Positions 40,582 to 57,664 of a stretch of 64,000 nucleotides of DNA are shown here, piece after piece. The notes beneath the pieces were generated by a model. It searched no databases. It was not told where the DNA came from and saw only the letters and a list, made by a program, of their open reading frames with translations. Origin of the DNA: a virus (lineage: Duplodnaviria > Heunggongvirae > Uroviricota > Caudoviricetes). The DNA is taken from the IMG/VR virus record IMGVR_UViG_3300046689_000419. One strand, 5' to 3'. A program made the translations under genes and the position numbers. Within the stretch, counting starts at the first letter, position 1, and each line of letters opens with the position of its first letter.

Positions 40582-40725
40582 CGTGATCACATTCCTTTCC
40601 GAATGCGTTGTAGGTGTGGTGCGGTTGCATGCCGGGCCCTCATCGGGGCCGCCCCGCAGGGCTGGCGATTGCCACATGTCTTTGGCCCTCTTCGAGGCCC
40701 ACCCGCAGGTTCCGGACATGCAAAA

Positions 40726-40756
40726 AGGCCCACCGGCTATCTGAGCCGGTGGGCCT
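40726..40756 (-). terminator. Terminator-like hairpin followed by the TTTTTGCATGTCCGG motif
   Basis: 12-bp GC stem aggcccaccggc/gccggtgggcct; on the minus strand followed by TTTTTGCATGTCCGGAA. Confidence 0.45.
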
Positions 40757-40857
40757 TAGTGAACGGTCAGCCTTTGACAGCCGACCGTCCTTCGCGCAGG
40801 CTGAAGCCCGAGCGACTGAAAACAGTCTATCACATGCATTCCACGCATGTCACTACA

Positions 40858-41139
40858 TCAGGTGAAGTCCCCTGTGCGCCACCTGGCGAAGTCCGCCGCT
40901 ACCGAACCCACGGTGGCGTTGATGTCGAGCTCCCGGTCCTGCTTCTTCTGCTCCTCGACCAGGTACCGAGCGTGGTTGATGGTGCTGGCCAGGTTGCCTC
41001 GTTCCCAGGTTCCGACGATCGCCTCGATGGCAGCGCGGAGTTCGTTGCGCTGCTGCTCGGCCTTGCGCAGCGCGTAGGCGATGTGCGCCGCCTCCTGCCT
41101 GGCGTTAGCCAGTTCCTTCTCCGGGTCCTTCTCGGTCAT
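40858..41139 (-). CDS. Hypothetical coiled-coil protein
   Basis: 93 aa. Confidence 0.45.
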   Translation of the reverse strand: MTEKDPEKELANARQEAAHIAYALRKAEQQRNELRAAIEAIVGTWERGNLASTINHARYLVEEQKKQDRELDINATVGSVAADFARWRTGDFT

Positions 41140-41288
41140 GGCTGCTCCTCCAGCTTTCGGCGCATTGTCCGGAAGTCGTCCGTAACCTGTGCCATGAAGG
41201 TGTCGCGGTCGGGAATCTCAGGAACCTCGGGAGCCACTCGGTAGTCAGCCAGGTAGATCACCTTCCCGATCTCGCCTTCCTCGGTCAT
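41136..41288 (-). CDS. Small protein homologous to the N-terminus of the 39484-40581 membrane protein
   Basis: 'PDRDTFMAQVTDDFR' versus 'PDRDAFMARVADRFR'. Confidence 0.35.
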   Translation of the reverse strand: MTEEGEIGKVIYLADYRVAPEVPEIPDRDTFMAQVTDDFRTMRRKLEEQP

Positions 41289-41497
41289 GGCTGCTCCTCT
41301 CCGAAGTCGAAGAACTGCTTGACCTCGGAGGGCAACTCCTCGCCGGCGAACAGCTCGACCACGAGCTTGCGTGCCTCGTCGCCCTCCAGCCGGCCGATGG
41401 GGCCGCCCTCGCGCATCCCGAGAGAGGCCATCTCGAGATCGATCAGCGCATCCTCGGCGGTGATGAACTGCTCCCCGTCCGGGTTGTCGGTGGTCAT
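41285..41497 (-). CDS. Acidic small protein
   Basis: 70 aa, Asp/Glu-rich. Confidence 0.4.
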   Translation of the reverse strand: MTTDNPDGEQFITAEDALIDLEMASLGMREGGPIGRLEGDEARKLVVELFAGEELPSEVKQFFDFGEEQP

Positions 41498-41730
41498 GTT
41501 CCTTCCTCCTTGGGTGGTTGGTACTGGGCCTCCATCTCATCGAAGGCCTTCTTGACTGCCGCGATGACCGGCCCCAGCCGGTCGATGTCCGCGAGGGTGG
41601 TCGGGTCTGAGTCCCGAGCCCGCTTCATGAACTCCTCGGCGCAGTCCGCGATCCGGGTGAAGGCATCAGCCATCCGGTTGATGTCGTTGCAGAACTTGTG
41701 GTCCATGTGGCTACCGGGCTCGCCTGGCAT
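41494..41730 (-). CDS. Hypothetical protein
   Basis: 78 aa. Confidence 0.45.
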   Translation of the reverse strand: MPGEPGSHMDHKFCNDINRMADAFTRIADCAEEFMKRARDSDPTTLADIDRLGPVIAAVKKAFDEMEAQYQPPKEEGT

Positions 41731-41840
41731 CAGCGTGCCTCCTTTCTAGTGGGGGAGTAGGAACGCGCCGAAGATCGCCCAGAGAACGGGGACCAGGACC
41801 AGGATCGTGACCACGATCAGCACGACCTTCACGGTGATCG

Positions 41841-42437
41841 TCATGACATCGCCTTCCATCCGCCGCACTTGGGACCCGGAGCCACCATGCAGACCCGCAG
41901 GCCGTAGCCGATCCGGTACTGGGTCTTCAGGTCCATGTCGGAGCAGACCCTGGTGCCCTTGATCGAGACCGTGCAGATCCGAGCCGAGTAGGAGTGCACG
42001 ACCATCACCGGCTTGTTGTTCACCTTCGGGTGCAGCAGCGCCCAGGTGATGTAGGCCGGGCTGGTGATGGTGGGGAACTGCCAGGGAGTCATTCGCTGCC
42101 AGACCACCCTGGTGACCACCGGGCCGAAGGTCACCTTCACCGACTGCAGCGACCCGAGCGAGCTGTGCGCGATGAACGACGGGTGCGGCGTGGAGGCCCA
42201 CCTGATGTAGCGGGACCCCTCCGGGCTGCGGTAGGAACACCCCAGCTCGAGGGCAGCCGCGTCGATGCCGGAGATCGAGCCACTGAGCACCGCCCTGGCC
42301 TGCTTGAAGTGCGTGGCGCAGTAGGGGGTCCTGGTGCCGTACGCCGCCTGCGCGTTGGTCTGCATCCCCAGGACGGCGGTGATCACCAGAGTGGTCATCA
42401 CCAGCCCGAGGAAGAGCCTGAACTGCTTGACGGTCAT
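41841..42437 (-). CDS. Secreted / membrane-anchored Cys-containing protein (signal peptide)
   Basis: N-terminus 'MTVKQFRLFLGLVMTTLVITAVLGMQTNAQAAYG' looks like a signal peptide; 198 aa. Confidence 0.5.
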   Translation of the reverse strand: MTVKQFRLFLGLVMTTLVITAVLGMQTNAQAAYGTRTPYCATHFKQARAVLSGSISGIDAAALELGCSYRSPEGSRYIRWASTPHPSFIAHSSLGSLQSVKVTFGPVVTRVVWQRMTPWQFPTITSPAYITWALLHPKVNNKPVMVVHSYSARICTVSIKGTRVCSDMDLKTQYRIGYGLRVCMVAPGPKCGGWKAMS

Positions 42438-42694
42438 CAGAACCACACCCACTCGAGCTTGACCCAGTTGAACCGGTCCGGCTGGAGCATCAGGTAGGTC
42501 GCCCAGGCGTTCGCCTTGCCCACCATGTCGGAGAGCAGCATCGCCTGCTCGTGGGGCTTCTGCGCGCTGTGCCACTCCTCGCTGCTGATGAACCACTGCC
42601 GGGTGAACTCCGGCTCCGGGGTGCCGGGCAGCACCCCGGCCACTACGTCCACACCGCACCTGGCGGTCTGGGTCTCACTGCTGAGCTTGCTCAT
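42437..42694 (-). CDS. Hypothetical protein
   Basis: 85 aa. Confidence 0.4.
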   Translation of the reverse strand: MSKLSSETQTARCGVDVVAGVLPGTPEPEFTRQWFISSEEWHSAQKPHEQAMLLSDMVGKANAWATYLMLQPDRFNWVKLEWVWF

Positions 42695-42960
42695 CGGCTT
42701 GCCTTCTCCTTGATCTTGACCTGGGCCTGGTACTTCGCGGCCTGGACCTTGGCGCGCTGCAGGATGGTGATCAGCGCATCGATGTTGTCGGGGTGGATGG
42801 CGACATGAGTCTGAGACTCACCGAGCCCCTTCGCGGCCTCCCATTCGGCGAGGACCACCACGCCGTCGCCGTTGATCTGCGGCCGGAACCACAGCACCTT
42901 GGACCACTTGTACGCACGTTTGCCGCCGGTGCTGACGACGATGAGCTTCTTCAATGCCAT
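42691..42960 (-). CDS. Hypothetical protein
   Basis: 89 aa. Confidence 0.45.
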   Translation of the reverse strand: MALKKLIVVSTGGKRAYKWSKVLWFRPQINGDGVVVLAEWEAAKGLGESQTHVAIHPDNIDALITILQRAKVQAAKYQAQVKIKEKASR

Positions 42961-42972
42961 GTGCTTTCTCCT

Positions 42973-43290
42973 TCACTCGTTGCGCCCATAGGGATGAGGG
43001 ACGCTTCTCATAGCCCGCTTCCGCCCGTGCAGGGCAGCGAGCAGGGACTCGATATACGGGTCGTACAGGCCGGCGGCCACGCCCTCGATCAGATCATCGA
43101 TCTCGGGCGGGCCGGCGGCCGGATGGGCCGGAGGCTCCTCCTCCACCTCGACGCGGCGCAACCACTCCCAGGAGTGGTAGAACCGCCGTGGGTCCATGGA
43201 CAGAGCCTCGGTGTGCTTGGCCGGCGCGGTGCAGACCAGCGTCTGGCCGGATCTGCTGGTGAACTTCTCACCACAGACCCGGTAGCTCAT
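42973..43290 (-). CDS. Hypothetical protein
   Basis: 105 aa. Confidence 0.45.
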   Translation of the reverse strand: MSYRVCGEKFTSRSGQTLVCTAPAKHTEALSMDPRRFYHSWEWLRRVEVEEEPPAHPAAGPPEIDDLIEGVAAGLYDPYIESLLAALHGRKRAMRSVPHPYGRNE

Positions 43291-43649
43291 GGCTGGGCTC
43301 CGGCCCTCCTGGTGAAGATCTCCATGTAGGTCTCCAGGTCGGCCTTGTGCAGCGCTGCCTTGTACTCATCGGCCTCGTTCTCCAGCTCCTCGACCTTGTT
43401 GACGATCCGCAGGACCACCTGGGCCAGCACCTGGTTGAACTGGGCGTAGAGCGCGGGCAGAGCCTGGTAGGGGATCACGATCTCGGTGACCGTGAACCCG
43501 TGACCGTGTGGCTCCTCCCAGGTGGCCAGCCGGATCTCCTCCTCGTCCGGCCGGTCGATGAAGCCGACTGCCAGGTGGTCGTGGGCCGGGTCGAACCAGT
43601 GGTCGCTCTTGGCCCTGGTCCGCACCCTGAAGGTGGGTTCGTCAGTCAT
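43287..43649 (-). CDS. Hypothetical protein
   Basis: Internal ATG with strong RBS AGGAGGAACGAGC; the upstream part of the longer ORF is Arg-rich junk. Confidence 0.45.
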   Translation of the reverse strand: MTDEPTFRVRTRAKSDHWFDPAHDHLAVGFIDRPDEEEIRLATWEEPHGHGFTVTEIVIPYQALPALYAQFNQVLAQVVLRIVNKVEELENEADEYKAALHKADLETYMEIFTRRAGAQP

Positions 43650-43974
43650 GCTCGTTCCTCCTGATCGGCAGCTCGATGATCCGCGGCAGTGGCTCCGGCC
43701 CGACGTACTGCACGCACCGGCAGGTGGACAGCACTGAGCGCGGACCGAAGGTCCCTGCACGGGTGTGGATGACGGTGTAGTGGCACCCCGCCTCGTCGTG
43801 GAACGAGATGTGGTGCGCGCAACCGCAGAACGGGTCCGGATCCTCGAGGGACCGGACCCGCTCCTGCAGCTTCTTGTTCGCGACGCGATAGGTCTCACCC
43901 CAACCCAGGGTGAGGAACCAGCCGACCAGCAGCACCAGGTTGCAGGCCAGCGAGACCCACAACCAGGCGGTCAT
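43642..43974 (-). CDS. Membrane-anchored Cys/His-rich protein (family C: CGCxHHxxFH...CxCxxYVGPxP)
   Basis: N-terminal TM helix; motif shared with 48994-49254. Confidence 0.5.
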   Translation of the reverse strand: MTAWLWVSLACNLVLLVGWFLTLGWGETYRVANKKLQERVRSLEDPDPFCGCAHHISFHDEAGCHYTVIHTRAGTFGPRSVLSTCRCVQYVGPEPLPRIIELPIRRNEHD

Positions 43975-44213
43975 CGAACGACTACCTCCTGGTCGGTGTG
44001 GATCTCGATCTTGGTGTAGCCGTGCGCCTTGTCGGCGAGGATCGCCTTGGCAGCCGTCCAGACCTCGCCGTTCACCTTCAGGTGCTCCACCTCGGTGGCG
44101 ACCGGCGTGGACTTCTTCTTGCGACGCTTCTTCTTGACTGGGGTGACCTCGCCACTGGCGATCGCCTGCACCGCGTTCTCGTGCAGGCTGGCCTTGTCCT
44201 GAAGCTCGTTCAT
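43971..44213 (-). CDS. Small basic protein
   Basis: RBS GAAGGAGGAGGA; 80 aa with a poly-Lys/Arg tract. Confidence 0.45.
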   Translation of the reverse strand: MNELQDKASLHENAVQAIASGEVTPVKKKRRKKKSTPVATEVEHLKVNGEVWTAAKAILADKAHGYTKIEIHTDQEVVVR

Positions 44214-44338
44214 TCCTCCTCCTTCGGTGGTGGCAGGGTGCCGTGGCCTCGGCAGGCCGGGCAGGTCTTGAAGATGTGGTAGCCGGACTTGGCCTCTACC
44301 AGCACGAGTCCGCCGCCCGAGCACAGCGTGCACCTCAA
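44210..44338 (-). CDS. Zinc-ribbon micro-protein (CTLC...CPAC)
   Basis: Probable TTG start with TTGA overlap; four Cys in CxxC pairs. Confidence 0.3.
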   Translation of the reverse strand: MRCTLCSGGGLVLVEAKSGYHIFKTCPACRGHGTLPPPKEEE

Positions 44339-44538
44339 CGTGCCTTCGCCCCCTCGCAGCCGGCGAGGTGGTTCTCCATGAGCTCCTTGGCGATGTAGGC
44401 ATCGGTGCGCAGCCGATGCAGCCGCCGGCGCTCCGGGGGACTGGGGTGTCGGCTCCGGGTCCGCTCGGTCAGGGACCTGACCTCGCTGGAGACGCTGATG
44501 TAGTGCCGCTTCAACTCGTTGCACTCGGTGCAGGCCAC
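44335..44538 (-). CDS. Small Cys-containing protein
   Basis: GTG start; 67 aa 'MACTECNELKRHYISV...'. Confidence 0.4.
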   Translation of the reverse strand: MACTECNELKRHYISVSSEVRSLTERTRSRHPSPPERRRLHRLRTDAYIAKELMENHLAGCEGAKAR

Positions 44539-44639
44539 TGGCTCCCCTTCAGGATGGCTGGCATGATTGGTGATGTTTCATTCCTTTCCATGGTGAGAGC
44601 CCCCGGGGGTCTGGTGAACTCCCGGGGGCTCTGTGGTGT

Positions 44640-44906
44640 CTACGCCGCGGTGATGCTGTCCGCGCACTCGAAGATCGGCGAGTTGATGTGGTGCACCACC
44701 ACGTCGTCCGCATCGAAGGCTACGAAGGTGACCATCCGGACGTGCTTGGATCCCGGGACGGTCAGCAGGGCCGGCTCGACGCCGACCGCGAGCATGTCGG
44801 CGTACTCCTTCATCGCCACGTGCAGCTTGTCGTGATCGGACTTGAAACTTCGGCCGTTGCAGAACGTGACTCCGACCTCGTACCTGACGGATCTGGGCTC
44901 GGCCAT
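44640..44906 (-). CDS. Hypothetical protein
   Basis: RBS GAAGGAGGG; 88 aa. Confidence 0.45.
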   Translation of the reverse strand: MAEPRSVRYEVGVTFCNGRSFKSDHDKLHVAMKEYADMLAVGVEPALLTVPGSKHVRMVTFVAFDADDVVVHHINSPIFECADSITAA

Positions 44907-44934
44907 GATCCCTCCTTCTGGGTCTTGCCCCGGA

Positions 44935-45315
44935 CTATCTCCAGTCCAGGATCTGAATGTAGTGACCACGATCGCTCCTTCCGGTGACTGCCGGGGCCAG
45001 CAGCCGGTCCGGTGGACCGGCCAGTCGGTACCGGGAGAACCTCGAGCAGAAGATCGTGAGGTCGGCCCAGGCCACCGCATCGTCCGCGGTGACCAGGAAC
45101 TCCTCGCCGAGGGCGGCAAGGAGTCTGGTCAGCGAGTCCCGGGATGGTGACTCGCGACCCTTCTCGATCGCGCAGAGCATCCCCCGGCTCACGCCGGCGC
45201 TCCGTGCGACTTCGGTCTGAGTGAACCGGTGTACCGAGCGCGCCACTGCCAGCAGCGCCCCCAACCTCCGGTTGTCCTCAGCATGGCTGCTCCCGATGTG
45301 CAGCGTTTCGCTCAT
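44935..45315 (-). CDS. XRE-family helix-turn-helix transcriptional regulator
   Basis: 'FTQTEVARSAGVSRGMLCAIEKGRESPSRDSLTRLLAALG' is a typical HTH_3 motif; RBS GGAAGGAG. Confidence 0.65.
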   Translation of the reverse strand: MSETLHIGSSHAEDNRRLGALLAVARSVHRFTQTEVARSAGVSRGMLCAIEKGRESPSRDSLTRLLAALGEEFLVTADDAVAWADLTIFCSRFSRYRLAGPPDRLLAPAVTGRSDRGHYIQILDWR

Positions 45316-45533
45316 CCGAACTCCTTCCTGATGAAGCCGTTGAGTTGTTCCTGGACCCACTCGGCGGGCAGGGTCTCTTCTCCCGATAGCAGGGTGTACT
45401 CGAACACCCCGATGGCCAGCACCCGGAACTCGGACTCGAGCATCCACATCCGAGTCCGGGTGGCGACCAGACATACCACGTACCCGGCGACGAACCAGAA
45501 CAGTGATACGAAGACGAGGACCAGCCACGTCAT
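45312..45533 (-). CDS. Small membrane protein
   Basis: 73 aa, N-terminal TM helix. Confidence 0.4.
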   Translation of the reverse strand: MTWLVLVFVSLFWFVAGYVVCLVATRTRMWMLESEFRVLAIGVFEYTLLSGEETLPAEWVQEQLNGFIRKEFG

Positions 45534-45862
45534 TCGTCGTCGCTGTCGTCGTGGTCGTCGAACGTGGCCAGCGCCTGAAGCATCTTCGCCCTGACTTCCT
45601 CTGGGGTGTCGCCCGGGTGGACCGTGAAGGTGACAGCGCCGGTGGTGTGGGACTTCCGCAGCCTGACCCCCAGCCGGTTCAGCAGTCGGAACAGCCAGGA
45701 CCGGTAGGTGTAGGCCTCCTTGATGAACTCGTTCTTGATCGTCACCGAGTCCAGGTCCTTCAAGGTCCGCTCGTCCTTGACGAGCCAGAGGTAGGTGCCG
45801 ACTACCTCGCGAATGACGAGTGCGCCGAGCAGGATGCCCAGGACGTACCTCAGCCGCCTCAT
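45530..45862 (-). CDS. Membrane protein with acidic C-terminus
   Basis: 110 aa, TM helix 'YVLGILLGALVI'. Confidence 0.45.
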   Translation of the reverse strand: MRRLRYVLGILLGALVIREVVGTYLWLVKDERTLKDLDSVTIKNEFIKEAYTYRSWLFRLLNRLGVRLRKSHTTGAVTFTVHPGDTPEEVRAKMLQALATFDDHDDSDDE

Positions 45863-46014
45863 GCGACCCTCTTCAGGACGAGGAACTGCAGGCCGCGGAT
45901 CAACACGAACTTCGCGGTATCCTCACCGCCGTTCTGCCAGGCCCAGTTGGCGGCCTTTCCACTCTGGGTCGGGAGTTTCTTGGCAGTGCGCTTGAGCTTC
46001 TTCTTGACCTTCAT
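45859..46014 (-). CDS. Small basic protein (51 aa)
   Basis: 'MKVKKKLKRTAKK...'; below the ORF-track cutoff. Confidence 0.3.
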   Translation of the reverse strand: MKVKKKLKRTAKKLPTQSGKAANWAWQNGGEDTAKFVLIRGLQFLVLKRVA

Positions 46015-46102
46015 GGTGTTGCCTTTCTGTTGACGTGCAGAAGGCCCCGCCGCGGGGTGCGACGGGGCCGGGGCGACCCGGGTAGGAAACCGGGCCGGTG
46101 GA

Positions 46103-46597
46103 TCACTTCTTCTTCTTCTTGCGGTCCCGGCTCCACTTCCAGGACCTTGACCAGATCACCGGGCTGCCCTCCTCGCCGGTCTTCGCCCAGGCGATCAGGG
46201 CCTTGTTCGGGCTGGTGTGGAACTCGATCCTCCGTGAGCTCGCCTCCCGCCACTTGTCCTGCAGCCACTCCGGCGGAGTGGTCTGAACCGCGATCTCCTC
46301 GGCGAGGTAGACCCGGCCCCAGTAGACCTGTGAGGCGAACGGATCGGGCTCGTCCCCGATCCAGCAGAACGGCGCGTTCAGCACGTCCTCCTCGCAGGCC
46401 ATGCAGTAATCGACCCCGGAGCCGAAGACAGCGTGCCCGGTCTCCGGCTCGTAGACGGCCGCCACCTCGAACCAGTGATGACCACGACTACAGGTCATCT
46501 CGGCGATCATCGTTGTGGTGTCCGGTGCGCTGAGGGACTCGATGAGCTCGTGCCTGTCGAAGTCGTAGAGCACCAGGTCCTTCCACGAGGTGCTCAT
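46103..46597 (-). CDS. Hypothetical protein
   Basis: 164 aa with several Cys/His. Confidence 0.45.
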   Translation of the reverse strand: MSTSWKDLVLYDFDRHELIESLSAPDTTTMIAEMTCSRGHHWFEVAAVYEPETGHAVFGSGVDYCMACEEDVLNAPFCWIGDEPDPFASQVYWGRVYLAEEIAVQTTPPEWLQDKWREASSRRIEFHTSPNKALIAWAKTGEEGSPVIWSRSWKWSRDRKKKKK

Positions 46598-46893
46598 ACC
46601 TGAGCCCCGTCCAGGATCGGACGGGTCTTCTCGCCCGAGAAGAGAACCGTCTCGATGGTCTCGGTCAGGAACCTCAGCAGACGCTTGAGCTCCTCGCGAT
46701 CAGCGGTGGTCAGACCCAGCTCGTACATCTCGTCCACGGCCATCATCTGGGCATCCCTGAGGTGGATCTGGGCGTGCTTCAGATGCCGCTCGGCCTGGAT
46801 CAGCGCGTTGTCCATGGTGCGCAGGTCCTCCTCGTTGGCGGCCATCAGAGGCAGTTCGGGCAGTCGGACCGCGCCGTGCGGTGATCCCAACAT
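46594..46893 (-). CDS. Hypothetical protein
   Basis: 99 aa. Confidence 0.4.
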   Translation of the reverse strand: MLGSPHGAVRLPELPLMAANEEDLRTMDNALIQAERHLKHAQIHLRDAQMMAVDEMYELGLTTADREELKRLLRFLTETIETVLFSGEKTRPILDGAQV

Positions 46894-47102
46894 GCGTCCG
46901 ACTCGCGAGCCATCCGCCGCGCGGCACGCTCGTTGAGGAGCTTGTCGTAGTCGGACTTGTACATCGCCTTGGTGCCGGTGAGCACGATTGGCTCTCCGGC
47001 GGGCTCCGGGACGTACGGCATGAGCTTGTTGCAGTCCTCACACCGCTGGGCGATTGGTGCCGTAAGCGGCAGGACTTCGTGCGTGCAGATGGTGGTGCTC
47101 AT
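46845..47102 (-). CDS. Zinc-binding small protein (CxxC...CxxC)
   Basis: 85 aa; RBS AAAGGGG. Confidence 0.45.
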   Translation of the reverse strand: MSTTICTHEVLPLTAPIAQRCEDCNKLMPYVPEPAGEPIVLTGTKAMYKSDYDKLLNERAARRMARESDACWDHRTARSDCPNCL

Positions 47103-47137
47103 AGCTGACCCCTTTCAAAGGGCTTGGACATGCAAAA

Positions 47138-47174
47138 AGGCCCCCGACCGGAGGGGTGCTCCGATCGGGGGCCT
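47138..47174 (-). terminator. Terminator-like hairpin followed by the TTTTTGCATGTCC motif
   Basis: 10-bp stem aggcccccga/tcgggggcct; on the minus strand followed by TTTTTGCATGTCCAAG, then the RBS of the next gene. Confidence 0.45.
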
Positions 47175-48330: not shown

Positions 48331-48364
48331 CTGTTTCCCTTCTCTCCTGGTGAAGGGGGCCTGC

Positions 48365-50988: not shown

Positions 50989-51184
50989 TCCTCTCTAGCT
51001 TCTCGGCCTTCATGAAGGCGTCCACCGAGGACTGCATGCCCTGGCTGAGGATAATCGCGCCCCTTGCGCAGACCGCGCCGTCGTCGTCCACCAGAACGTC
51101 CTGGCACCAGCCGTTCACTTCGATGTACTCGCGGGCCTCCGCGAGCACGTCGGCGGCAGACTTCTCAGTCACGAACATCGCCAC
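50969..51184 (-). CDS. Paralogue-family protein A2 (short form, 71 aa)
   Basis: 'KSAADVLAEAREYIEVNGW...GAVCARGAIILSQG...FMKAEKLERSGNV'; lacks the middle segment. Confidence 0.45.
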   Translation of the reverse strand: MAMFVTEKSAADVLAEAREYIEVNGWCQDVLVDDDGAVCARGAIILSQGMQSSVDAFMKAEKLERSGNVGE

Positions 51185-51497
51185 TCCTCTCGATCTTCTC
51201 CGCCTTCATGAACAGGTCGGTGACCTCCTCCTGGGTACGACCAACCTGGTCGTTCCAGAGGGTGATCGCACTACGAGGCTTCCAGCCAGTAGCGGCCAGG
51301 AGCTTCTGCTCGATCCGGTACTGCTGGGCGCGTTGCCCTATGACTAGCTCGTGGATATTCCAGCCCTGGCTGTAGATGACCGCGCCTGCCGCGCACACCT
51401 TGCCGGCGTGGTTGTGCAGGGCATGCTGGACCCAGCCGTGCTTCTCGATGTACTCCCGGGCCTCCGCAAGCACATCAGCGTCACTCTTCAACAACAT
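51165..51497 (-). CDS. Paralogue-family protein A3
   Basis: 'KSDADVLAEAREYIEKHGW...GKVCAAGAVIYSQGW...LWNDQVGRTQEEVTDLFMKAEKIERSG'. Confidence 0.55.
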   Translation of the reverse strand: MLLKSDADVLAEAREYIEKHGWVQHALHNHAGKVCAAGAVIYSQGWNIHELVIGQRAQQYRIEQKLLAATGWKPRSAITLWNDQVGRTQEEVTDLFMKAEKIERSGDVRD

Positions 51498-51873
51498 TCC
51501 CGCTCCTCTCCTGCTTCTCAGCCTTCATCAGCACGTCCAGGACCTGCTGCTTGTCGGCGTAGATGTCGTTCCAGTTGGTGACTCGACGGATCGGATCGCC
51601 CGGGAAAGACCGGCGGTAGACCACCTCGAGGATCTTCCGGGACAGCCGCGCCAGGTCGAAGAGGTGCGCATCCTCCACGCCCAGTCCGGTCACTCCGGTG
51701 TACTTCCAGCCTTGGCTGCAGATGATGGCTCCGACCATGCACACCGCCCCGTCGTCGCGCTGGATGTAGCTCGAGGTCCAGTCGTGCTCCTCGACGTACT
51801 CCTGGGCGTCACTGAAGATGTCCGCATCGGTCTTGATGTCGGCCTCAGACTTCGGCTCGTCCATCGACGGCAC
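51481..51873 (-). CDS. Paralogue-family protein A4
   Basis: 'AQEYVEEHDW...GAVCMVGAIICSQGW...NWNDIYADKQQVLDVLMKAEKQERSG'. Confidence 0.55.
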   Translation of the reverse strand: MPSMDEPKSEADIKTDADIFSDAQEYVEEHDWTSSYIQRDDGAVCMVGAIICSQGWKYTGVTGLGVEDAHLFDLARLSRKILEVVYRRSFPGDPIRRVTNWNDIYADKQQVLDVLMKAEKQERSGNVVEE

Positions 51874-52225
51874 CTCCCCGGGCGATCTTCTCGGCCTTCA
51901 TGAAGGCGTCGTAGACCTGCTCGTAATCCCGGTCACAGTCGTCGTTCCAGGCGGTCAGCCGGTTGAGGCCCACGCCCACCTTTCCGGGCAGGTTCTTCTT
52001 GCCAGCAGCCCGCAGGATGAGACCGCTGAGCCGCATGCAGTCATTGACGTGCTCGTGTTCCACGTCGTAGTTGTCCTCATCGACCCAGCCCTGGCTGTAG
52101 ATGATGCCGCCCAGGGCACAGACGTACCCGTCCTCGTTCCTCAGCACGTCCTTGGTCCAGCCGTGCCGATCGAAGTACTCCCTGGCCTCGGCCAGGATGT
52201 CCGCATCGGACTTCTGCTCGGTCAT
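51845..52225 (-). CDS. Paralogue-family protein A5
   Basis: Start MTEQKSD; 'SDADILAEAREYFDRHGW...GYVCALGGIIYSQGW...AWNDDCDRDYEQVYDAFMKAEKIARGG'. Confidence 0.55.
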   Translation of the reverse strand: MTEQKSDADILAEAREYFDRHGWTKDVLRNEDGYVCALGGIIYSQGWVDEDNYDVEHEHVNDCMRLSGLILRAAGKKNLPGKVGVGLNRLTAWNDDCDRDYEQVYDAFMKAEKIARGGAVDGRAEV

Positions 52226-52782
52226 AGCTTCAGCCCCCGGGACTCCGCGATCATGGCGGCCAGGGCCTTGATCGTGGTTGAGGAGTTGTCCCCGTGGAAC
52301 AACTTGAGCGCCTCGGTCTCGGTCAGCCCCAGCACGGCTTGGCCACCATCGGACCAGCTGAGGTGGCCCCACTCGGTGGCCGAGGGATCGACCAGGTTCC
52401 CGTCGTAGCCGACCAGGCTCGGGTCGGTGTACTCCTCGCGCAGCTGGTGGTTGGTCAGCTCATCTGCCGAGCTGACCCCGAACTCTCGGACGCACTGCTC
52501 AGCAGGGAGCTCACCGAGCAGCTCCCCGAGGGTCTTGACTCCACCTGTGGTGTACAGGGCGTAACCACACACGCAGTAGGCGCTGCCGCAGTAGTTCGAG
52601 GTCTGCAGGAACACCGACCAGGAGGCCTGGTTCCAGTGCGGCTCGTTGGGGAGGGGCGTGAAGGCGTGGGCCTGTCGGTCCACCCAGGCCACGCACTCCC
52701 GGAGCAGCTCGATGTTGAGCTTGGGGAGCTCGTCGTACCGGACGCCCACACCATCGCGGACACTGATGACATTGCTTTCCAT
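52222..52782 (-). CDS. Paralogue-family protein B3
   Basis: Start MESNVIS; 'NYCGSAYCVCGYALY' and 'ALKLFHGDNSSTTIKALAAMIAESRG'; bridges the A and B subfamilies. Confidence 0.5.
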   Translation of the reverse strand: MESNVISVRDGVGVRYDELPKLNIELLRECVAWVDRQAHAFTPLPNEPHWNQASWSVFLQTSNYCGSAYCVCGYALYTTGGVKTLGELLGELPAEQCVREFGVSSADELTNHQLREEYTDPSLVGYDGNLVDPSATEWGHLSWSDGGQAVLGLTETEALKLFHGDNSSTTIKALAAMIAESRGLKL

Positions 52783-52795
52783 GGTTCTGTTCTCC

Positions 52796-53698
52796 TTAGT
52801 TCCCCGGCGCTGTACCGGAGACGACGTATGTCGGTTGGAACGGGTTCTGGCCTTGCTGGATGGCTTCGTGGCGCAGGAAGTTCTCCGCACCGCCGTAGCC
52901 GTTGATCTCGGCCCGGGTCTTGGACGCCTCCGCCTGAGCGACGGCGATCTGGGCCCGAGCCTTCGCTGCATCCGCCTGCGCCTGAGCCTCCTGGGCCCGG
53001 GCCTCGGCAGAGGCACTGTTCGCCTTCGCGACCGCCGCCTGCTCGTCGGCGACGGCCTGCTTCAGCTGCTCGTTGGTCGGGTCGGGCTTCTGGATCAGCA
53101 CTGAGAAGTCCTGAAAGAAGTCCCCGCCGGCCTGTCGGGCCACCAGCGGACCGATGGAGGAGGAGACCTCCTTCTCCAGGGCCGCCTTGGTCACTGGGTC
53201 GTTCCACAGCTCGCGCCACTTGTCACCCTGCGCAGCACGGTCCAGCGCCTGGTCCAGCGGCTTGCCGATCACAAAGTTCAGCATCTTGATCCAACCGTCC
53301 GGGAACTCCGAGGACTTCGCCGAGCCATCGAAGGCCGCGTCGAAGCGAGAGCCGATGGACTCGTGGAACTTGCGCAGCGACTTGCAGTCGGTCTTCAACC
53401 GGAAGGTGACCGTGGTCGGCACCCGGAGCTCGGCGTTGTCCGCGGAGACCACCGTGAACGAGGCGGACTCCGCGTCCTGACCACCGGTGGCGTCGTAGCT
53501 GATCTGCCTGGTCGGGTAGCCGAAGTAGTTGTCCCCGGGGTGGAACCCGGTCCGAGTGGACGGGTCCACGCAGTCCACGAACTTCTTCGCGGAGAACTCG
53601 CCGCCGGCGTAGTGGACATCGACCATATCCGGACCGGTAGTCGCGGACGCACAGCCCGCCAGCAGCAACAGCGAGGCGAGCCCGATCAACCACCTCAC
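52796..53698 (-). CDS. Lipoprotein with C-terminal Ala/Gln/Glu-rich coiled coil
   Basis: GTG start; lipobox 'LLLAGC' in 'VRWLIGLASLLLLAGCASATTG'; 300 aa. Confidence 0.5.
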   Translation of the reverse strand: MRWLIGLASLLLLAGCASATTGPDMVDVHYAGGEFSAKKFVDCVDPSTRTGFHPGDNYFGYPTRQISYDATGGQDAESASFTVVSADNAELRVPTTVTFRLKTDCKSLRKFHESIGSRFDAAFDGSAKSSEFPDGWIKMLNFVIGKPLDQALDRAAQGDKWRELWNDPVTKAALEKEVSSSIGPLVARQAGGDFFQDFSVLIQKPDPTNEQLKQAVADEQAAVAKANSASAEARAQEAQAQADAAKARAQIAVAQAEASKTRAEINGYGGAENFLRHEAIQQGQNPFQPTYVVSGTAPGN

Positions 53699-54135
53699 GA
53701 GATCGCTGCCGGCTGGTCGCCGCCATGCACGGGGCAGGCCGGGTTGACCACGGACATCTCCGGGCTCTCCCAGACGCAGATGCAGGTCTTCTTGGCCTGC
53801 TTCTCCTCCGCCTTCGCCTCGGCCTTCTCGATCTGCGCCTTCTGCAGGGCCGTGTCGGCATCGGCGATCTGGTCGAGCAGCAGGTTCGCACCCAGGACAT
53901 CCTCGAACACCTGGATGTTGGTGACCAACCGCCGGACTCGGCTCCGAGCGAACACGAGGGCCTCGTCCGCCTCGGTGAGCGCCTTCAACGCCGCATCGAT
54001 GCAGTCCCGGCAGACCGGGTGGTCCTCGGGGATGTCCTCCCAGAGGACCTTGACCTTGAACTTCTTTCCGCAGAGCCCGAGTACTCGATCTCCGATCAGG
54101 TGCCTCGGGCGGTTGGTGATGTGTGCAGTTTTCAT
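53695..54135 (-). CDS. Cys-containing coiled-coil protein
   Basis: RBS GGAGAGGA; 146 aa with CxxC pairs. Confidence 0.45.
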   Translation of the reverse strand: MKTAHITNRPRHLIGDRVLGLCGKKFKVKVLWEDIPEDHPVCRDCIDAALKALTEADEALVFARSRVRRLVTNIQVFEDVLGANLLLDQIADADTALQKAQIEKAEAKAEEKQAKKTCICVWESPEMSVVNPACPVHGGDQPAAIS

Positions 54136-54407
54136 GGTGAGTCCTCTCCATTGGGAAACAGGTGGTGGTACCGCTCGTGCACCCACTCGCGGTGTCGCTG
54201 CTCGGCAGCAGCCTTGTGAGCCAGGCGCTTCTGGACCTGCTCGGGGGTCTCCGGCTCATCCCAGATCAGATGCCCGCCGGTGACGGTGACCTGGTTGGGG
54301 TCCAGGTCCTTCTCCAGGCAGAAGGCCAGCACCTGCTCGACGGACCAGCCCCGGTACATCGGCTCCATCCGGCGCAGCATCATCGGCTCGGTGCTCTGCT
54401 CACTCAT
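54132..54407 (-). CDS. Hypothetical protein
   Basis: 91 aa from MSEQSTEP. Confidence 0.45.
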   Translation of the reverse strand: MSEQSTEPMMLRRMEPMYRGWSVEQVLAFCLEKDLDPNQVTVTGGHLIWDEPETPEQVQKRLAHKAAAEQRHREWVHERYHHLFPNGEDSP

Positions 54408-54643
54408 TGGTTCTCCGTGTTGGTTCGGGACAGGCGGATCCTGTCGAGGATGATCTGGGACAGCTGGCTGTCGAGCATGTTGTACTCGATGGCCAGGGTG
54501 GACAGGTCGTCGCGCAGGTTGCGGAGCTCGGTGAGCTCCTTGCGTTCTCTCCTGTCCAAGTTGCTGGCGCGGATCCCCCTGGCGATCGCCACTGCCACGA
54601 TGGCGACGATCAGCACCGGGATGAACGCGATGATGACTTTCAT
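54404..54643 (-). CDS. Single-TM membrane protein with coiled coil
   Basis: 'MKVIIAFIPVLIVAIVAVAIARGI'. Confidence 0.5.
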   Translation of the reverse strand: MKVIIAFIPVLIVAIVAVAIARGIRASNLDRRERKELTELRNLRDDLSTLAIEYNMLDSQLSQIILDRIRLSRTNTENQ

Positions 54644-54876
54644 TCCTTCTCCTTGTCGTATTGGTGGATCTCATAGACCGAGTAGGCGCACACCTGGAAC
54701 GCCAGCCAGGCCAGGCACAGAGCAATGGCCCCGACGGGGGTCCCCCACAGGAAGTAGAGGACCCAACCGTCGAAGGCCAGGGCGAGGCTGTTGAAGACCA
54801 GGAAGAGCCACCAGATGTGGTCCTTGCCGACGAGCCAGTCGAAGAGCCTGGTCACCGGGTTCTGGCTATTGGCCAA
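54640..54876 (-). CDS. Two-TM membrane protein
   Basis: 78 aa, Trp-rich hydrophobic helices. Confidence 0.5.
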   Translation of the reverse strand: MANSQNPVTRLFDWLVGKDHIWWLFLVFNSLALAFDGWVLYFLWGTPVGAIALCLAWLAFQVCAYSVYEIHQYDKEKE

Positions 54877-55102
54877 TAACCTCGATCTCCTCCCGAGAGG
54901 TGAACTTCAGCAGCCGGACCGGCTTGCCCAGCTCGGCCGCGATCTTCTCGGCTATCGGCCGGAGCTTCTCGACCATGGCCATGTCGGCTCCCACCATCGG
55001 CAGCCAGCCCGACTCGCTGTAGAACCCGACCACGCCTTCGGTGTGGTCGTCGTCGGTGACCACGAAGGCGTACATCTGATCGATGTGCAGCTGGCCGTTC
55101 AC
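54866..55102 (-). CDS. Hypothetical protein
   Basis: GTG start with GTGA overlap and RBS GGAG; 78 aa. Confidence 0.4.
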   Translation of the reverse strand: MNGQLHIDQMYAFVVTDDDHTEGVVGFYSESGWLPMVGADMAMVEKLRPIAEKIAAELGKPVRLLKFTSREEIEVIGQ

Positions 55103-55569
55103 GAGCCGCTCCAGATCCCGAGCCGTGGCTGCCGGTCCCGGAACCGCTCCTCGAAGTCGTCGTCCCAGGGGAACCGGTCCTCGGTGTCCGGCCAGACCAG
55201 CTGCAGGCCGGACACCCGGCCGAACAGGTGCTGGCACATGCTCATCGGCAGCGCTCCGAGGGGCTCCAGGACCTCCAGAACCGCCACCCGCAGGCCTACC
55301 AGCACCTCGGTGGAGTAGGTGTCCGGCTCGAACCTGGTACCGCCTTGAATCGCCTGGTAGGCCGCGTTCAGCACTCCGTGCGATACCTCCGGGGTCATCC
55401 CGACCACGATCAGATCGGGGTGGTGGTGGTGCTCGCCCAGCCCGACCGTGTAGGTGAAGTAGTGCCCTGGGCTGGCCGTGGTGGGGAACACCGAGATCGC
55501 CGCCCAACCCTCCCGGGCGATGTCATCGAGGACCTTGCGGTCCACCTTGTCCCATCTGTCCTGCGTCAT
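55099..55569 (-). CDS. Hypothetical protein (His-rich 'EHHHHPDLIVVG'; possibly a DUF4262-type domain)
   Basis: RBS AGAGGAGAGGG; 156 aa. Confidence 0.45.
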   Translation of the reverse strand: MTQDRWDKVDRKVLDDIAREGWAAISVFPTTASPGHYFTYTVGLGEHHHHPDLIVVGMTPEVSHGVLNAAYQAIQGGTRFEPDTYSTEVLVGLRVAVLEVLEPLGALPMSMCQHLFGRVSGLQLVWPDTEDRFPWDDDFEERFRDRQPRLGIWSGS

Positions 55570-55579
55570 CCCTCTCCTC

Positions 55580-55885
55580 TCATGGCAACTCTCTGCAGGT
55601 GGCACAGGCTCCGAACATGAAGAAGACCTGTACCTCGCCGCGCATCCGCAGCACGTGCCCGGTCCAGAACGGCATCGGGTCCGGGCAGTACGCGCCACAG
55701 TTGTCGCAGGTGCGATCCCAGCGCTCGAACTCCTCGGGAGTCGCGTGCTCGCCCGGCTCGGAGACCGGGGTCATCACCAGCGGCACCCCCACGTCGGCGG
55801 TGCTTCCGAGGTGTGCCTCCATCAGCGCCAGCCGCTGATCGACCAGCGGGGTCAGCCAGGCCGGCTCGGGTACCGGCTCAGGCAT
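55580..55885 (-). CDS. Cys-rich small protein (CDNC...C...C...CATC)
   Basis: 101 aa. Confidence 0.45.
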   Translation of the reverse strand: MPEPVPEPAWLTPLVDQRLALMEAHLGSTADVGVPLVMTPVSEPGEHATPEEFERWDRTCDNCGAYCPDPMPFWTGHVLRMRGEVQVFFMFGACATCRELP

Positions 55886-56318
55886 CCGGAGCGACCCCGC
55901 GCATCCGCTTGGCGGTCTCGTGCAGCAGGTCCAGGGCGTTCTGCTCGGAGCCCCAGCCGTTGTCGTTCCAGCCCGGCAGGTCGCCCATCCCCCAGCGCTC
56001 GTCCCAGTCCTCCCGCTTCGCGCGCTGGTTCAGGGTGTCCAGCACCGCTGAGTAGACCGGGCAGGTCAGCAGCTTGCCCCGCTGATCGCTGTTCGCCTCC
56101 ATGTCGGCGGCGTCCAGGCCGATAGCCGCGGCCATCGCACCCTCGATGCAGTAACTCCACCGCTCGACCTCGCTGCCCTGCTCGTCGTACTCGTCCCAGG
56201 AGGAGAACCAGGCACCGGTGGTCCAGTGCCCCTCCAGCAGCTCTGCTGCGTCCTCGCATGCCTCGGCGATCTCTTCCTCGGTGCTGATCTCGTTCCATGC
56301 CTTCTTGTACATACTCAT
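55878..56318 (-). CDS. Distant member of paralogue family A
   Basis: 'WSYCIEGAMAAAIGL' and 'LPGWNDNGWGSEQNALDLLHETAKRMRG'. Confidence 0.45.
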   Translation of the reverse strand: MSMYKKAWNEISTEEEIAEACEDAAELLEGHWTTGAWFSSWDEYDEQGSEVERWSYCIEGAMAAAIGLDAADMEANSDQRGKLLTCPVYSAVLDTLNQRAKREDWDERWGMGDLPGWNDNGWGSEQNALDLLHETAKRMRGVAPDA

Positions 56319-56330
56319 TCCCTTCGTTGG

Positions 56331-56930
56331 TTACCAACTGCTCTGGTACCGGAGCACCAGCGGTTTCGGATAGGTGTTGATGACCTCGGCGAGCCGGTCC
56401 ACGGTGTGCTGCAGCTCGGCGATGTACCACTCGTCGTAGTCCACCGAGCCGAAGAAGAACCCGCCCTGGGTGGGCAGCAGCTTCGCGGCCAGCAGCGGGG
56501 TCTCGATCACCTGCTTGCACAGGTCCACCAGCTCGGCCAGCACCTCACCGTGGATCGGCTCGGTGAGCCGGCAGTCGTCCTCGCCGTCCTGGACGGTCCG
56601 TACGAACCACTCGTGGATCGCGTTGGCCTTGCGCCAGTACACCGCGCAGGGCCGGACCAGGTAGTCCTTGGTCTCGGGCTCCAGCTCGACGTAGAAGTGC
56701 GGCGAGTCGAGGTCCGGAGCCATCCCGGTCAGGGCGACCAGGGTGGCGTAGGCCGGGTCCGGCGGCACCGTCTCGAAGTCCCAGCCGGAGACGTAGGTGG
56801 AGTGCTGGTAGATCTCCTCGTTGGCGAGCTCCTCGAGGTGGTGACCCTCCAGGGCCTTGGTGATCGCCTGGTGCTGCTCGGTGTCCGCCGCCACCCGGTG
56901 CTCGGCGGTCAGGTACATGTCTAATCCCAT
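56331..56930 (-). CDS. Hypothetical protein
   Basis: 199 aa. Confidence 0.5.
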   Translation of the reverse strand: MGLDMYLTAEHRVAADTEQHQAITKALEGHHLEELANEEIYQHSTYVSGWDFETVPPDPAYATLVALTGMAPDLDSPHFYVELEPETKDYLVRPCAVYWRKANAIHEWFVRTVQDGEDDCRLTEPIHGEVLAELVDLCKQVIETPLLAAKLLPTQGGFFFGSVDYDEWYIAELQHTVDRLAEVINTYPKPLVLRYQSSW

Positions 56931-57586
56931 CAGGACTCCTGTGGGCCGTGCAGGGCATGGGCGAGTACCTGGAGCGGACTGAACTCACCGCCCTCGATGA
57001 AGGTGATCACCGACTCCTCGTCGTCCTCGTCGGGGAAGGCGTCGCGGTAGTGCTGGCCGTACTTGATCAGGCAGGCCAGGTCCCGGCCCTCCTCGGTGCC
57101 CTCGGCTGGAGTGGGCAGCTCGGAGACCAGGCCGTTCAAGATGGCGTAGGCCCCGAAGTTGCTGCCCAGGTCCTCGTCGGCGTAGAGCACCTGGAGCATC
57201 TGGTCCGGGAACCTCTCGGAGAGCGCGCTGATCACCGGGTACGGGTGTGCCCAGGCGGTGTCGAAGCGGACCACGGTGTCGTGCTCGGAGACCTCGGTCT
57301 CGTAGGCGTTCCACTTGGTGCCCCAGTTCTGGATCGACCAGTCGTACCAGTCGATCGCTCCCTCGGGGTACGGGATCGGGTCACCCTTCATCCCGGCCGG
57401 GTCGTCCTCGGTCGGGGCCCAGTAGACCTTCTTCATTTCGCCGTCGATCTTGGCGTGCCCGATGCTGCCGGTGATCACGTCATCGGGCATCGGGATGATG
57501 CGGTTAAAGTCCACCCCTGCCTCGGTGAGCAAGGCATCGATCGCCTCGCGCGGTCCGCGCAGGATGGTGGTTATGTGGTTGGGCAT
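56930..57586 (-). CDS. Hypothetical protein (motifs 'IIPMPDD' and 'NWGTKWNAYE', reminiscent of DUF1281-type phage proteins)
   Basis: RBS GGAAGGA 7 nt before the ATG (MPNHITT). Confidence 0.45.
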   Translation of the reverse strand: MPNHITTILRGPREAIDALLTEAGVDFNRIIPMPDDVITGSIGHAKIDGEMKKVYWAPTEDDPAGMKGDPIPYPEGAIDWYDWSIQNWGTKWNAYETEVSEHDTVVRFDTAWAHPYPVISALSERFPDQMLQVLYADEDLGSNFGAYAILNGLVSELPTPAEGTEEGRDLACLIKYGQHYRDAFPDEDDEESVITFIEGGEFSPLQVLAHALHGPQES

Positions 57587-57622
57587 TACAAGTCCTTCCA
57601 TGGGTTGTCCGGACATGGAAAA

Positions 57623-57664
57623 GCCCGGTGCCGAAGAGAGTAAGTACTCCCTCCGACACCGGGC
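57623..57664 (-). terminator. Weak terminator-like hairpin followed by TTTTCCATGTCCGG
   Basis: 8-bp stem gcccggtg/caccgggc with a long loop; same downstream motif as the 40.7 and 47.1 kb hairpins. Confidence 0.3.

Follow-up and report, generated by a model that had tools for sequence, protein, structure and literature searches.

A conserved sequence behind promoter-proximal hairpins in the leftward operon of a putative uncultured actinobacteriophage

At three points of a long leftward gene array, the genome of the tailed virus (Caudoviricetes) recorded as IMGVR_UViG_3300046689_000419 in IMG/VR carries a stable hairpin followed immediately by a run of T and the sequence CATGTCC. This recurrent arrangement raises the question of what the composite is, and of what the few bases held behind each hairpin might do. 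The window considered here is a stretch of 64,000 nucleotides (nt), in which the leftward array extends from ~60.9 kb down to 35.8 kb. An earlier reading of the same letters, made without database searches (the sequence-only reading), regarded the hairpins as terminators or attenuators coupled to a promoter, an RNase or antiterminator site, or an operator. The analysis described below indicates that each site is very probably a compact module, in which a promoter, a structured leader, an intrinsic terminator, the motif, a Shine-Dalgarno (SD) sequence and a start codon follow one another in this order.

Hairpin, T-run and CATGTCC on the minus strand

All three hairpin-plus-element sites lie on the minus strand, as had been described. 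At site 1, the hairpin GGCCCACCGGCT-CAGAT-AGCCGGTGGGCC (40755-40727; 12-13 base pairs (bp), -26 to -28 kcal/mol, z -6.8) is followed by the junction TTTTT-G-CATGTCC at 40726-40714, made of TTTTTG (40726-40721) and CATGTCC (40720-40714). The hairpin of site 2 (47173-47139; 15-16 bp, -33 to -35 kcal/mol, z -6.6) leads into the junction TTTTT-G-CATGTCC at 47138-47126, with TTTTTG at 47138-47133 and CATGTCC at 47132-47126, and then into the SD sequence AAAGGGG and an ATG at 47102. Site 3 has the longest stem (57664-57623; 19 bp, -36 to -37.5 kcal/mol, z -8.5), recognized by a terminator scan, by folding and by stem covariation, and its junction reads TTTT-C-CATGTCC (57622-57611; TTTTC 57622-57618, CATGTCC 57617-57611), followed by the SD sequence GGAAGGA and an ATG at 57586. 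For their composition, these hairpins are among the most stable possible (-26 to -37.5 kcal/mol; z -6.6 to -8.5). The 18-mer GGACATGCAAAAAGGCCC, reported as shared by two of the sites on the plus strand, is found at 47126 as announced, while its other copy starts at 40714 and not at 40713. The next start codon does lie within the 25-140 nt proposed: it is the ATG at 47102 (30 nt after the motif C), the ATG at 57586 (31 nt), and the GTG at 40587 or ATG at 40581 (~133-139 nt).

With a GC stem, a brief A-tract ahead of it, a U-tract behind it and covariation of the stem among phages, the hairpins show all the sequence hallmarks of canonical intrinsic terminators, as the sequence-only reading had suggested, and they split the leftward operon into blocks. 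Calling this operon 'early' is an assumption. A search of both strands yields no other full copy of the composite and one degenerate, possible fourth copy on the minus strand (46069-46031). There, a hairpin at 46069-46043 (-24.6 kcal/mol) precedes a weak T-run, TTCTG, and CACGTCA at 46037-46031, with no promoter upstream. Two other minus-strand hairpins provide a contrast. The operon-end terminator (35785-35744), a hairpin with T6 that is conserved in the related locus L147, has no CATGTCC, and neither has an internal hairpin from the terminator catalogue (39475-39448), which is followed by TTTCCC and is not preceded by a promoter.

The bare 7-mer CATGTCC is not rare: counted over the two strands, it occurs 21 times, for the most part within coding sequence or antisense to it. 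A similar frequency of the motif in coding sequence had been put forward as grounds for dismissing it; the 7-mer is indeed common, but this is not the relevant test, because the non-randomness lies in the composite of hairpin, T-run and CATGTCC. For instance, the 12-mer GGACATGSAAAA, with at most one mismatch, has three matches versus 0.22 expected, and 1 of 100 shuffles reaches three. CATGTCC also stands within 0-2 nt after three of the six compact hairpin-plus-T-run terminators of the whole window (P ~1e-10).

The sequence-only reading missed the promoters upstream of the hairpins. Because each hairpin is preceded by its own predicted sigmaA-type promoter, the unit is better described as promoter, leader, terminator and motif than as a terminator with a promoter behind it. 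These promoters are near-consensus, with a -10 box ending 43-68 nt ahead of the stem. At site 1, promoter scanning and geometry give a -35 box GTGACA (40853-40848), an 18-nt spacer and an extended -10 box TGA-TAGACT (40829-40824), with a predicted transcription start site (TSS) at ~40817, on the minus strand like the next two; the -10 pattern TGTGATAnAnT is kept in the orthologs L147, L164 and L003. The site 2 promoter, delimited by geometry, comprises TTGCAT (47263-47258), a 17-nt spacer and GATAGT (47240-47235), with a predicted TSS at ~47228. The boxes of site 3, invariant in three phages, are TTGTGC (57737-57732) and, after 18 nt, TGA-TAGTGT (57713-57708), with a predicted TSS at ~57701. 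When cassettes of related phages are included, all 13 instances have a plausible promoter (TTGNNN-like -35, 17-18 nt spacer, TANNNT-like -10) situated 34-104 nt ahead of the stem. That of L002_c is the weakest, and eight of these promoters have an extended TGn.

The leaders, measured from the predicted TSS to the end of the terminator, are ~83-95 nt long, and consist of one or two independent stem-loops and then the terminator. Site 1 has two, P1 (40815-40792) and P2 (40790-40761), in a minus-strand fold whose minimum free energy (MFE) structure equals the centroid (z -6.7); compensatory changes in orthologs are found in P2 (alignment columns 105/122 and 106/121). The two stem-loops of site 2 are at 47226-47209 and 47200-47181 (minus strand, z -7.25), and a single imperfect one is present at site 3 (57700-57668, minus strand, z -6.1). 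No competing anti-terminator fold is seen in the leaders, where MFE and centroid structures agree and independent hairpins form at high ensemble frequency. Rfam gives no family at threshold for the cassettes, and its permissive matches are generic hairpins. A riboswitch, an attenuator based on alternative folds, or a known RNA family was rejected, with no alternative fold, aptamer or Rfam family being found.

Conservation in metagenomic relatives

The loci designated here by L numbers belong to relatives that metagenomes alone have revealed. When IMG/VR was searched for exact matches to GGCCTTTTTGCATGTCC, four contigs were retrieved, all four of which have the same architecture with unrelated stems, and L003 was first found with a 17-mer probe. 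Other loci were retrieved independently of the motif: L147 and L148 through the AAA-ATPase gene (76% identity), L164 through a motif-free probe from the 5' untranslated region (5'UTR), and L020 and L023 through a neighbouring gene or protein. All of these carry the cassette at the orthologous place, and L147, L164, L020 and L023 are seen to keep the junction. The comparison rests on 13 distinct instances (four site 1 orthologs, three of site 2, three of site 3 and three others), and several can occur in one genome, with at least three cassettes in 14 kb of L002 and two in L020.

Across these instances, the stems are 9-19 bp long (-15 to -36 kcal/mol) and are followed, at 0 nt, by T3-5. The outer eight pairs are formed in 13 of 13 instances, while an inner 8-mer is common to only 4 of 78 pairs of stems. 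Orthologous stems are either replaced outright, as between the window and L147, or altered by compensatory changes, nine pairs being changed on both sides in the site 1 family. L164 and L003 show such changes in the site 1 stem, the site 2 orthologs (L002:5915 and L020:5419) have a different stem, and at site 3 the terminator hairpin and a second hairpin at 57763-57739 both covary across phages. The junction, on the other hand, hardly varies. At site 1, it is identical in L147 and L003, and has a T4 run in L164. Over the 13 instances, T at -4, the A-T-G and C at +5 are invariant, with C or T at position 0 and T or C at +4, giving the consensus T3-5, 0-2 nt, (C/T)ATG(T/C)C(C). The way in which the instances were recognized partly determines these columns, although the motif-independent orthologs and an unbiased terminator catalogue of the clade agree with them. 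In that catalogue, the motif occurs on promoter-associated internal terminators, but not on the operon-end terminator or on the promoter-less hairpin. As the junction is conserved across related phages while the stems vary, the adjoining element is under selection and would represent a genuine regulatory signal, in line with its description as a conserved element.

The leaders themselves are not conserved between orthologous cassettes, at ~50% protein identity, and only the presence of hairpins is kept. The genes that follow each cassette also differ between phages while the cassette stays. In L002 and L020, the first element past the divergent junction with the replication genes is a cassette of the site 3 type, which therefore heads the leftward array. 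Since flanking genes change around a retained cassette, and since site 1 is flanked by a duplicated gene N-terminus, the cassettes mark the boundaries of mosaic modules. A scan of a genome collection with the 17-mer was uninformative on the host: matches across many phyla corresponded to chance 17-mers, to a conserved Pseudomonas gene start and to generic terminators.

In the more distant relatives L007, L010, L017 and L023, TTTCGTC... stands behind several of the compact terminators (L023 has TTTCGTCATGTCT and L007 has TTTCGTCATGCGG, for instance), which may be a lineage-specific version of the post-terminator element.

Possible roles of the junction

The position of the motif offers a first indication of what it belongs to. 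In every one of the 13 instances, its C is found 4-6 nt past the last pair of the stem, whereas the distance to the SD sequence ranges over 7-25 nt, and that to the start codon over 18-36 nt or, at site 1, ~130 nt. With the stem distance fixed and the SD and start distances floating, the motif belongs to the terminator rather than to the translation start. The proposal that it is a promoter does not hold for the sigmaA type: there is no TANNNT 16-19 nt after TTGCAT, and sometimes no room for one, as in L023, where an SD sequence begins 1 nt after the 6-nt CATGTC core. A start at the motif ATG, whether leaderless or from a promoter of its own, was also rejected, there being no -10 box at -12 to -7. 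The same applies to a hairpin promoter of the N4 type, read by a phage RNA polymerase. In N4, the virion polymerase recognizes a stem of 5-7 bp with a 3-nt loop in a fixed geometry, whereas the stems here have 9-19 bp, loops of 4-5 nt and T-runs, and no polymerase signal was found in the large unannotated open reading frames (ORFs) by searching PDB, Pfam and PHROGs.

The reading that we favour, although only tentatively and at rather less than even confidence, places the role of the junction at the level of transcription: the promoter-proximal terminators would gate the blocks, and the junction would set or mediate read-through. Each site is very probably a composite transcription module heading a gene block, with a strong host sigmaA-type promoter, a leader, an intrinsic terminator and what may be called a 'terminator-associated sequence', conserved in the clade. 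Polymerases from the local promoter and from the upstream block would both meet the terminator, and the block would be expressed only by the fraction reading through, expression being the product of promoter strength and read-through. Because only these polymerases would express the block, the cassettes could gate its dosage or timing. Intrinsic terminators release the RNA ~7-9 nt past the stem, and as the motif lies 4-6 nt past the stem, C-A-U-G-U-C-C would sit in the active site and downstream duplex of RNA polymerase when termination or escape is decided. The junction might therefore be a pause or termination-efficiency element, or a docking point for a read-through factor. Its reader is more likely to be host machinery (RNA polymerase, NusG or NusA; alternatively, RNase E) than a phage protein, since an identical motif is carried by phages with few genes in common in these regions, among which no conserved regulator is apparent. 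Pfam and PHROGs searches of ~70 ORFs (leftward and other small ORFs, with ~16 kb of the genome lying outside the window) revealed no sigma factor, no NusG/RfaH-like and no Q-like protein. A narrower version, which we consider unlikely, makes the junction the recognition element of a sequence-specific switch at the terminator release site, with a host or phage factor reading the bubble or the downstream duplex and toggling the polymerase between termination and processive read-through. One signal would then gate every block, from an 'ops-like' or 'nut-like' site placed after the terminator and not before it.

Several points weigh against a role in read-through. Termination and read-through at the cassettes are themselves deduced from sequence. 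The hairpins look very efficient, yet no antiterminator was identified in the ~70 ORFs scanned. Two variants of CA(T/C)GTC are kept after hairpins with poor T-runs (46037 in the window and L002:9378), so that the motif seems tied to the hairpin more than to the U-tract, which would equally fit RNA processing or RNA binding. The consensus of elemental pauses is not consistently matched by the junction, G-10 being present at site 3 only, and the conservation of seven specific bases exceeds the need of simple terminator-strength tuning. Furthermore, as the site 1 motif forms half of an 11-bp helix in the 5'UTR, an RNA-level role after read-through is possible.

Among the rival explanations, an RNA processing site is the least improbable, though itself doubtful. 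In RNA that is polycistronic or results from read-through, a host endoribonuclease such as RNase E would cut the single-stranded U-rich stretch by the hairpin, e.g., at UUUUUG|CAUG, leaving a protective 3' hairpin on the upstream fragment and giving the downstream block a defined 5' end. Mycobacterial RNase E prefers cutting 5' of C, and 12 of the 13 instances contain C-A-U. In the folds, the motif is left unpaired; its spacing from a stable hairpin is fixed, it is still found where the T-run of the hairpin is weak, and its invariance across phages would suit a host enzyme. Nevertheless, the degenerate preference of RNase E alone would not fix seven bases, L002_c has TATG, without the C, and processing leaves the promoter upstream of every site unexplained. 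An element acting on translation is improbable. It would either use the invariant AUG as an upstream or decoy start that loads ribosomes, with short upstream ORFs (uORFs) coupled to the main start, or modulate initiation by pairing CAUG with the SD or start region. None of the 13 instances departs from the ATG, and at site 2, L002_s2 and L023 the uORF overlaps the main start by ATGA. Folds at sites 2 and 3 pair the motif with the SD or start region, and in some cassettes outside the site 1 family CAUG pairs with a downstream (C)AUG. However, no SD sequence precedes the motif AUG, a stable hairpin ends 6-7 nt ahead of it, the degenerate copy reads CACG, and the SD and start distances float, as noted above. 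The length and frame of the uORF vary even among orthologs, and substitutions at site 1 keep an RNA mini-hairpin and not codons, for which reasons an N-terminal extension or a conserved leader peptide was rejected. Nor do the cassettes have a general pairing with the ribosome-binding region further on as their common mechanism, because permuted motifs pair about equally well in most cassettes. The helix of the site 1 family is notable, but weakly so (10-11 of 150 permutations in the window and L003, 20 of 150 in L164 and 70 of 150 in L147).

A phage or host protein bound to DNA at an asymmetric CATGTCC(GGA) operator right behind the terminator could hold RNA polymerase at the U-tract and enforce termination, in the manner of Cluster A stoperators, but this also has a low probability. 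The site is indeed short, asymmetric and in a single orientation relative to transcription, it extends to the palindrome TGTCCGGACA at site 3, and block 2 contains an XRE-type helix-turn-helix (HTH) gene (HTH_31/HTH_3; ~45311-44935, minus strand), the sole recognizable regulator of the leftward array. The palindromic half is, however, not kept in orthologs (L020 has TGTCCAAAGC), the XRE-type gene was not detected in the examined loci of relatives keeping the motif, the copies number only 3-4, the window shows neither an integrase nor an immunity repressor, and a DNA site needs no lock to an RNA hairpin. Two further explanations are highly unlikely. One is a phage-specific middle or late promoter right after the terminator, read by a phage-modified RNA polymerase, with the upstream promoter and terminator forming short-RNA genes. 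Arrays of terminators followed by conserved non-sigma70 promoters are known from the early regions of phiC31 and from the MotA boxes of T4, and TTGCAT resembles a -35 box, being that of the site 2 promoter; against this stand the lack of a -10-like box 16-19 nt further on, the SD sequence so close to the core in L023, and the failure to find any sigma-like or polymerase-like protein in the ORFs scanned, and a short-RNA gene before every such promoter would itself call for an explanation. The other denies the 7-mer a dedicated function: the cassettes would be mobile regulatory modules, like the stem-loop cassettes of T4-like phages, with a junction kept by common descent and recombination between cassettes. 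Their location at mosaic boundaries, where flanking genes differ between phages, and the duplicated gene N-terminus around site 1 agree with mobility. Descent or recombination would, however, homogenize the stems too, which are unrelated while 8-13 nt of junction are invariant, and 13 nt is very short for homologous exchange. Least probable of all is that the leaders are stand-alone regulatory small RNAs with their own terminators, the motif merely marking the start of the next 5'UTR. A promoter, a structured RNA of ~85-95 nt and a terminator do form the anatomy of a small RNA gene, but the leader sequences diverge between orthologous cassettes, Rfam recognizes none of them, they have no extended complementarity to other transcripts of the window, and the downstream genes have no other visible promoter. 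As trans-acting small RNAs, the three leaders were rejected, with no convincing target in the window.

Comparison with characterized systems helps to define what is new in the transcription-level reading. The lambdoid units PR'-qut-tR' (Q) and PL/PR-nut-tL1/tR1 (N) similarly combine a strong promoter with an efficient intrinsic terminator within ~100-200 nt, so that read-through is needed for a long operon, and their default product is a short terminated leader RNA, comparable to cassette terminators that end ~83-95 nt after the predicted TSS. They differ in being present once or twice per genome, against three or more times here, and in having Q or N, of which no homolog was found by Pfam and PHROGs in the ORFs scanned. 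They also rely on a sigma-dependent pause box, whereas no consistent second TANNNT appears in the 13 initially transcribed regions inspected, and their conserved element lies before the terminator and not after it. The put RNAs of HK022, which mediate processive antitermination, are likewise stem-loops just past promoters (early ones in HK022), two in number as at sites 1 and 2. Nevertheless, put is conserved in sequence and structure, while the leaders here vary between orthologs, as does the number of stems, site 3 having a single imperfect one. In ops/RfaH and NusG-dependent pause elements, a short conserved element of the operon leader is read in the transcription bubble and alters downstream termination. 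No RfaH or LoaP paralog was found here under the same searches, the motif is unrelated to ops (GGCGGTAGnnTG), and we know of no precedent for an ops-like element immediately after a full terminator.

Closer in layout are the 'promoter-early stem-loop' (PeSL) cassettes of T4-like phages, in which a host-type promoter and a terminator-like stem-loop are repeated at the boundaries of variable modules in non-structural regions (PMC4122927, PMC2839356). The likeness lies in the composite of promoter and stem-loop at the borders of blocks with differing gene content. PeSLs are compact, conserved as whole units and proposed as recombination points. In the present cassettes, by contrast, only the promoter boxes and 7-13 nt of junction are common, a leader of 85-95 nt lies between promoter and terminator, and the stems vary. 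Cluster K mycobacteriophages have the start-associated sequence (SAS), a 13-bp motif that contains the SD sequence and lies 3-7 bp from the start codon, and its extended form (ESAS), whose inverted repeats are conserved in sequence, with pairing unsupported (PMC3203893). SAS and ESAS resemble the present motif as short, asymmetric, one-orientation sequences of an actinophage non-structural arm, sometimes with an inverted repeat before them. They are tied to the start, however, whereas here the motif is tied to the hairpin, lacks an SD sequence, and follows a repeat conserved in pairing but not in sequence. The stoperators of Cluster A phages (L5 gp71) are asymmetric intergenic sites of ~13 bp, oriented with transcription, that stop elongating polymerase; there are ~24-30 per genome, and they need an immunity repressor. 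They share the single orientation, but are numerous and without hairpins or T-runs, while the window has 3-4 copies of the motif and, as far as detected, neither repressor nor integrase. Phage LUZ7 provides a precedent in operons subdivided by terminators, where ONT-cappable-seq revealed time-dependent read-through that changes during infection (PMC9163698). In the parts of that report considered here, no conserved post-terminator sequence is described (PMC9163698). A 50-bp motif reported by Vardy (PMC9671010) is a different element, a promoter with a leaderless start, and was set apart.

We classify the cassette with the composite promoter/terminator units already known from phage non-structural regions, the 'terminator-associated sequence' being its distinctive feature. 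In the papers searched, no account was found of phage operons in which the T-runs of terminators have a conserved sequence directly on their 3' side. Gene regulation in actinobacteriophages is poorly understood, and SAS/ESAS and other conserved intergenic motifs are still without a mechanism. The present element is compact and tractable, with 7-13 nt at a fixed offset from a strong terminator, at each block, and it does not vary across phages with few genes in common. Should read-through be under its control, the element would explain how blocks of early genes are timed or dosed without a recognizable antiterminator. It could also reveal which sequences actinobacterial RNA polymerase, NusG or RNase E prefer at terminators. 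For synthetic control in high-GC hosts, it would offer a promoter-attenuator cassette with a tunable leak, and it would provide an annotation marker for operon block boundaries in a phage clade known only from metagenomes.

Site-specific structures and gene context

The ~130-nt 5'UTR of site 1 (40713-40579, minus strand) is conserved in four phages, i.e., the window, L147, L164 and L003. Its consensus fold over the four orthologs, with compensatory pairs, contains two mini-hairpins of the GGCCUCGAAGAGGGCC type (40700-40684 and 40651-40634), the sequence CCGGCAUGCAA (40635-40625), complementary to the motif, and an SD sequence with GTG/ATG starts (40600-40579). UUGCAUG-U-CCGG pairs with CCGGCAUGCAA in an 11-bp helix enclosing both mini-hairpins. 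In orthologs, GGCCUCGAAGAGGGCC is changed to GGGCUCGAAGAGGCCC with the pairing kept, and L003 has a compensatory C/G swap. For the 356-aa gene, this 5'UTR has the look of a cis-regulatory RNA in its own right.

A direct repeat of 68 nt with 76% identity (41158-41225 versus 40496-40563; repeat D17) flanks site 1. A 50-codon ORF (...IPDRDTFMAQVTDDF...) upstream of a 93-aa gene duplicates the sequence that encodes the N-terminus (MPDRDAFMARVADRF...) of the gene lying downstream of site 1. This arrangement suggests that the 93-aa gene and the site 1 cassette were inserted by recombination.

At the head of the site 3 intergenic region, an extra promoter-like site, P3a, can be read on the minus strand (57915-57887; TTGACC, 17 nt, TAATGT), and its pattern resembles a promoter of L003. 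About 150 nt downstream of P3a, the hairpin GGCCAGGACGAATCTCGTTCTGGCC (57763-57739, minus strand), which has no T-run, abuts the -35 box of the site 3 promoter; in L002 and L020 its stem shows covariation between flanks, GAACAGGCC and GGCCCTTGTGC, that do not change. The stretch between P3a and this hairpin could be another short transcript, or the hairpin could be the terminator of the tail-fibre-like genes directly upstream of site 3. The predicted P3a RNA is also perfectly complementary, over 17 nt, to the plus-strand mRNA of a DnaB-like gene at 62041 (57871-57855 versus 62041-62057). The match is GC-rich and near-palindromic (GGGCCC-type), and may plausibly be due to chance.

The window has a G+C content of 66.5%. 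Its plus strand, from 1 to ~35.7 kb, carries virion genes, including a Mu-type portal, a MuF-like protein, a terminase remnant and a tape measure protein of 1,927 aa, and the DnaB-like and primase-like genes are directed rightward from 61.3 kb. The portal is ~44% identical to those of Arthrobacter and Microbacterium phages, which is a distant similarity only. Nucleotide searches for both close and distant similarity, together with a search of GenBank phages by protein, detected no cassette, syntenic gene or nucleotide similarity in cultured phages, and exact-protein lookup gave matches in environmental assemblies only. On these grounds, the source virus appears to be an uncultured actinobacteriophage-like siphovirus. 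Two very large ORFs of the virion region (9526-13284 and 31772-35329, plus strand; 1,252 and 1,185 aa) have no Pfam, PHROGs or PDB-sequence match.

Nearly all genes of the leftward array are without an assigned function in Pfam and PHROGs scans. At its upstream end, a protein with a Laminin_G_3/ConA-like domain (57919-59367, minus strand) is encoded next to collagen-like Gly-X-Y coding repeats of 9-nt periodicity (59119-59251 and 60504-60645). Probably, tail-fibre genes have here been placed between the leftward array and the replication genes, and the region is missing from the equivalent position in L002 and L020. Further along, at 49.5-52.4 kb on the minus strand, five tandem paralogs of ~110-130 aa (DUF6197), with common N-termini (SDADILAEAREYIE...), are seen as the repeat families D1, D3 and D4. 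The XRE-type HTH gene of block 2 overlaps, in another frame, an ORF picked by a simple ORF caller. The last gene of the array (36063-36944, minus strand) encodes a DGRHRL motif reminiscent of ParB/sulfiredoxin-type nucleases, and matches PHROG 5931 but no Pfam family. Together with the AAA ATPase gene (37297-38880), it constitutes the best-conserved part of the array, with 64-77% identity in L003 and L147. Lastly, a covarying intergenic hairpin without a T-run (44597-44631, minus strand; L002:9263-9288) precedes a conserved TCACCATG(G)AAAGGAATGA that contains an SD sequence and a start codon, and forms an orthologous junction of a different type.

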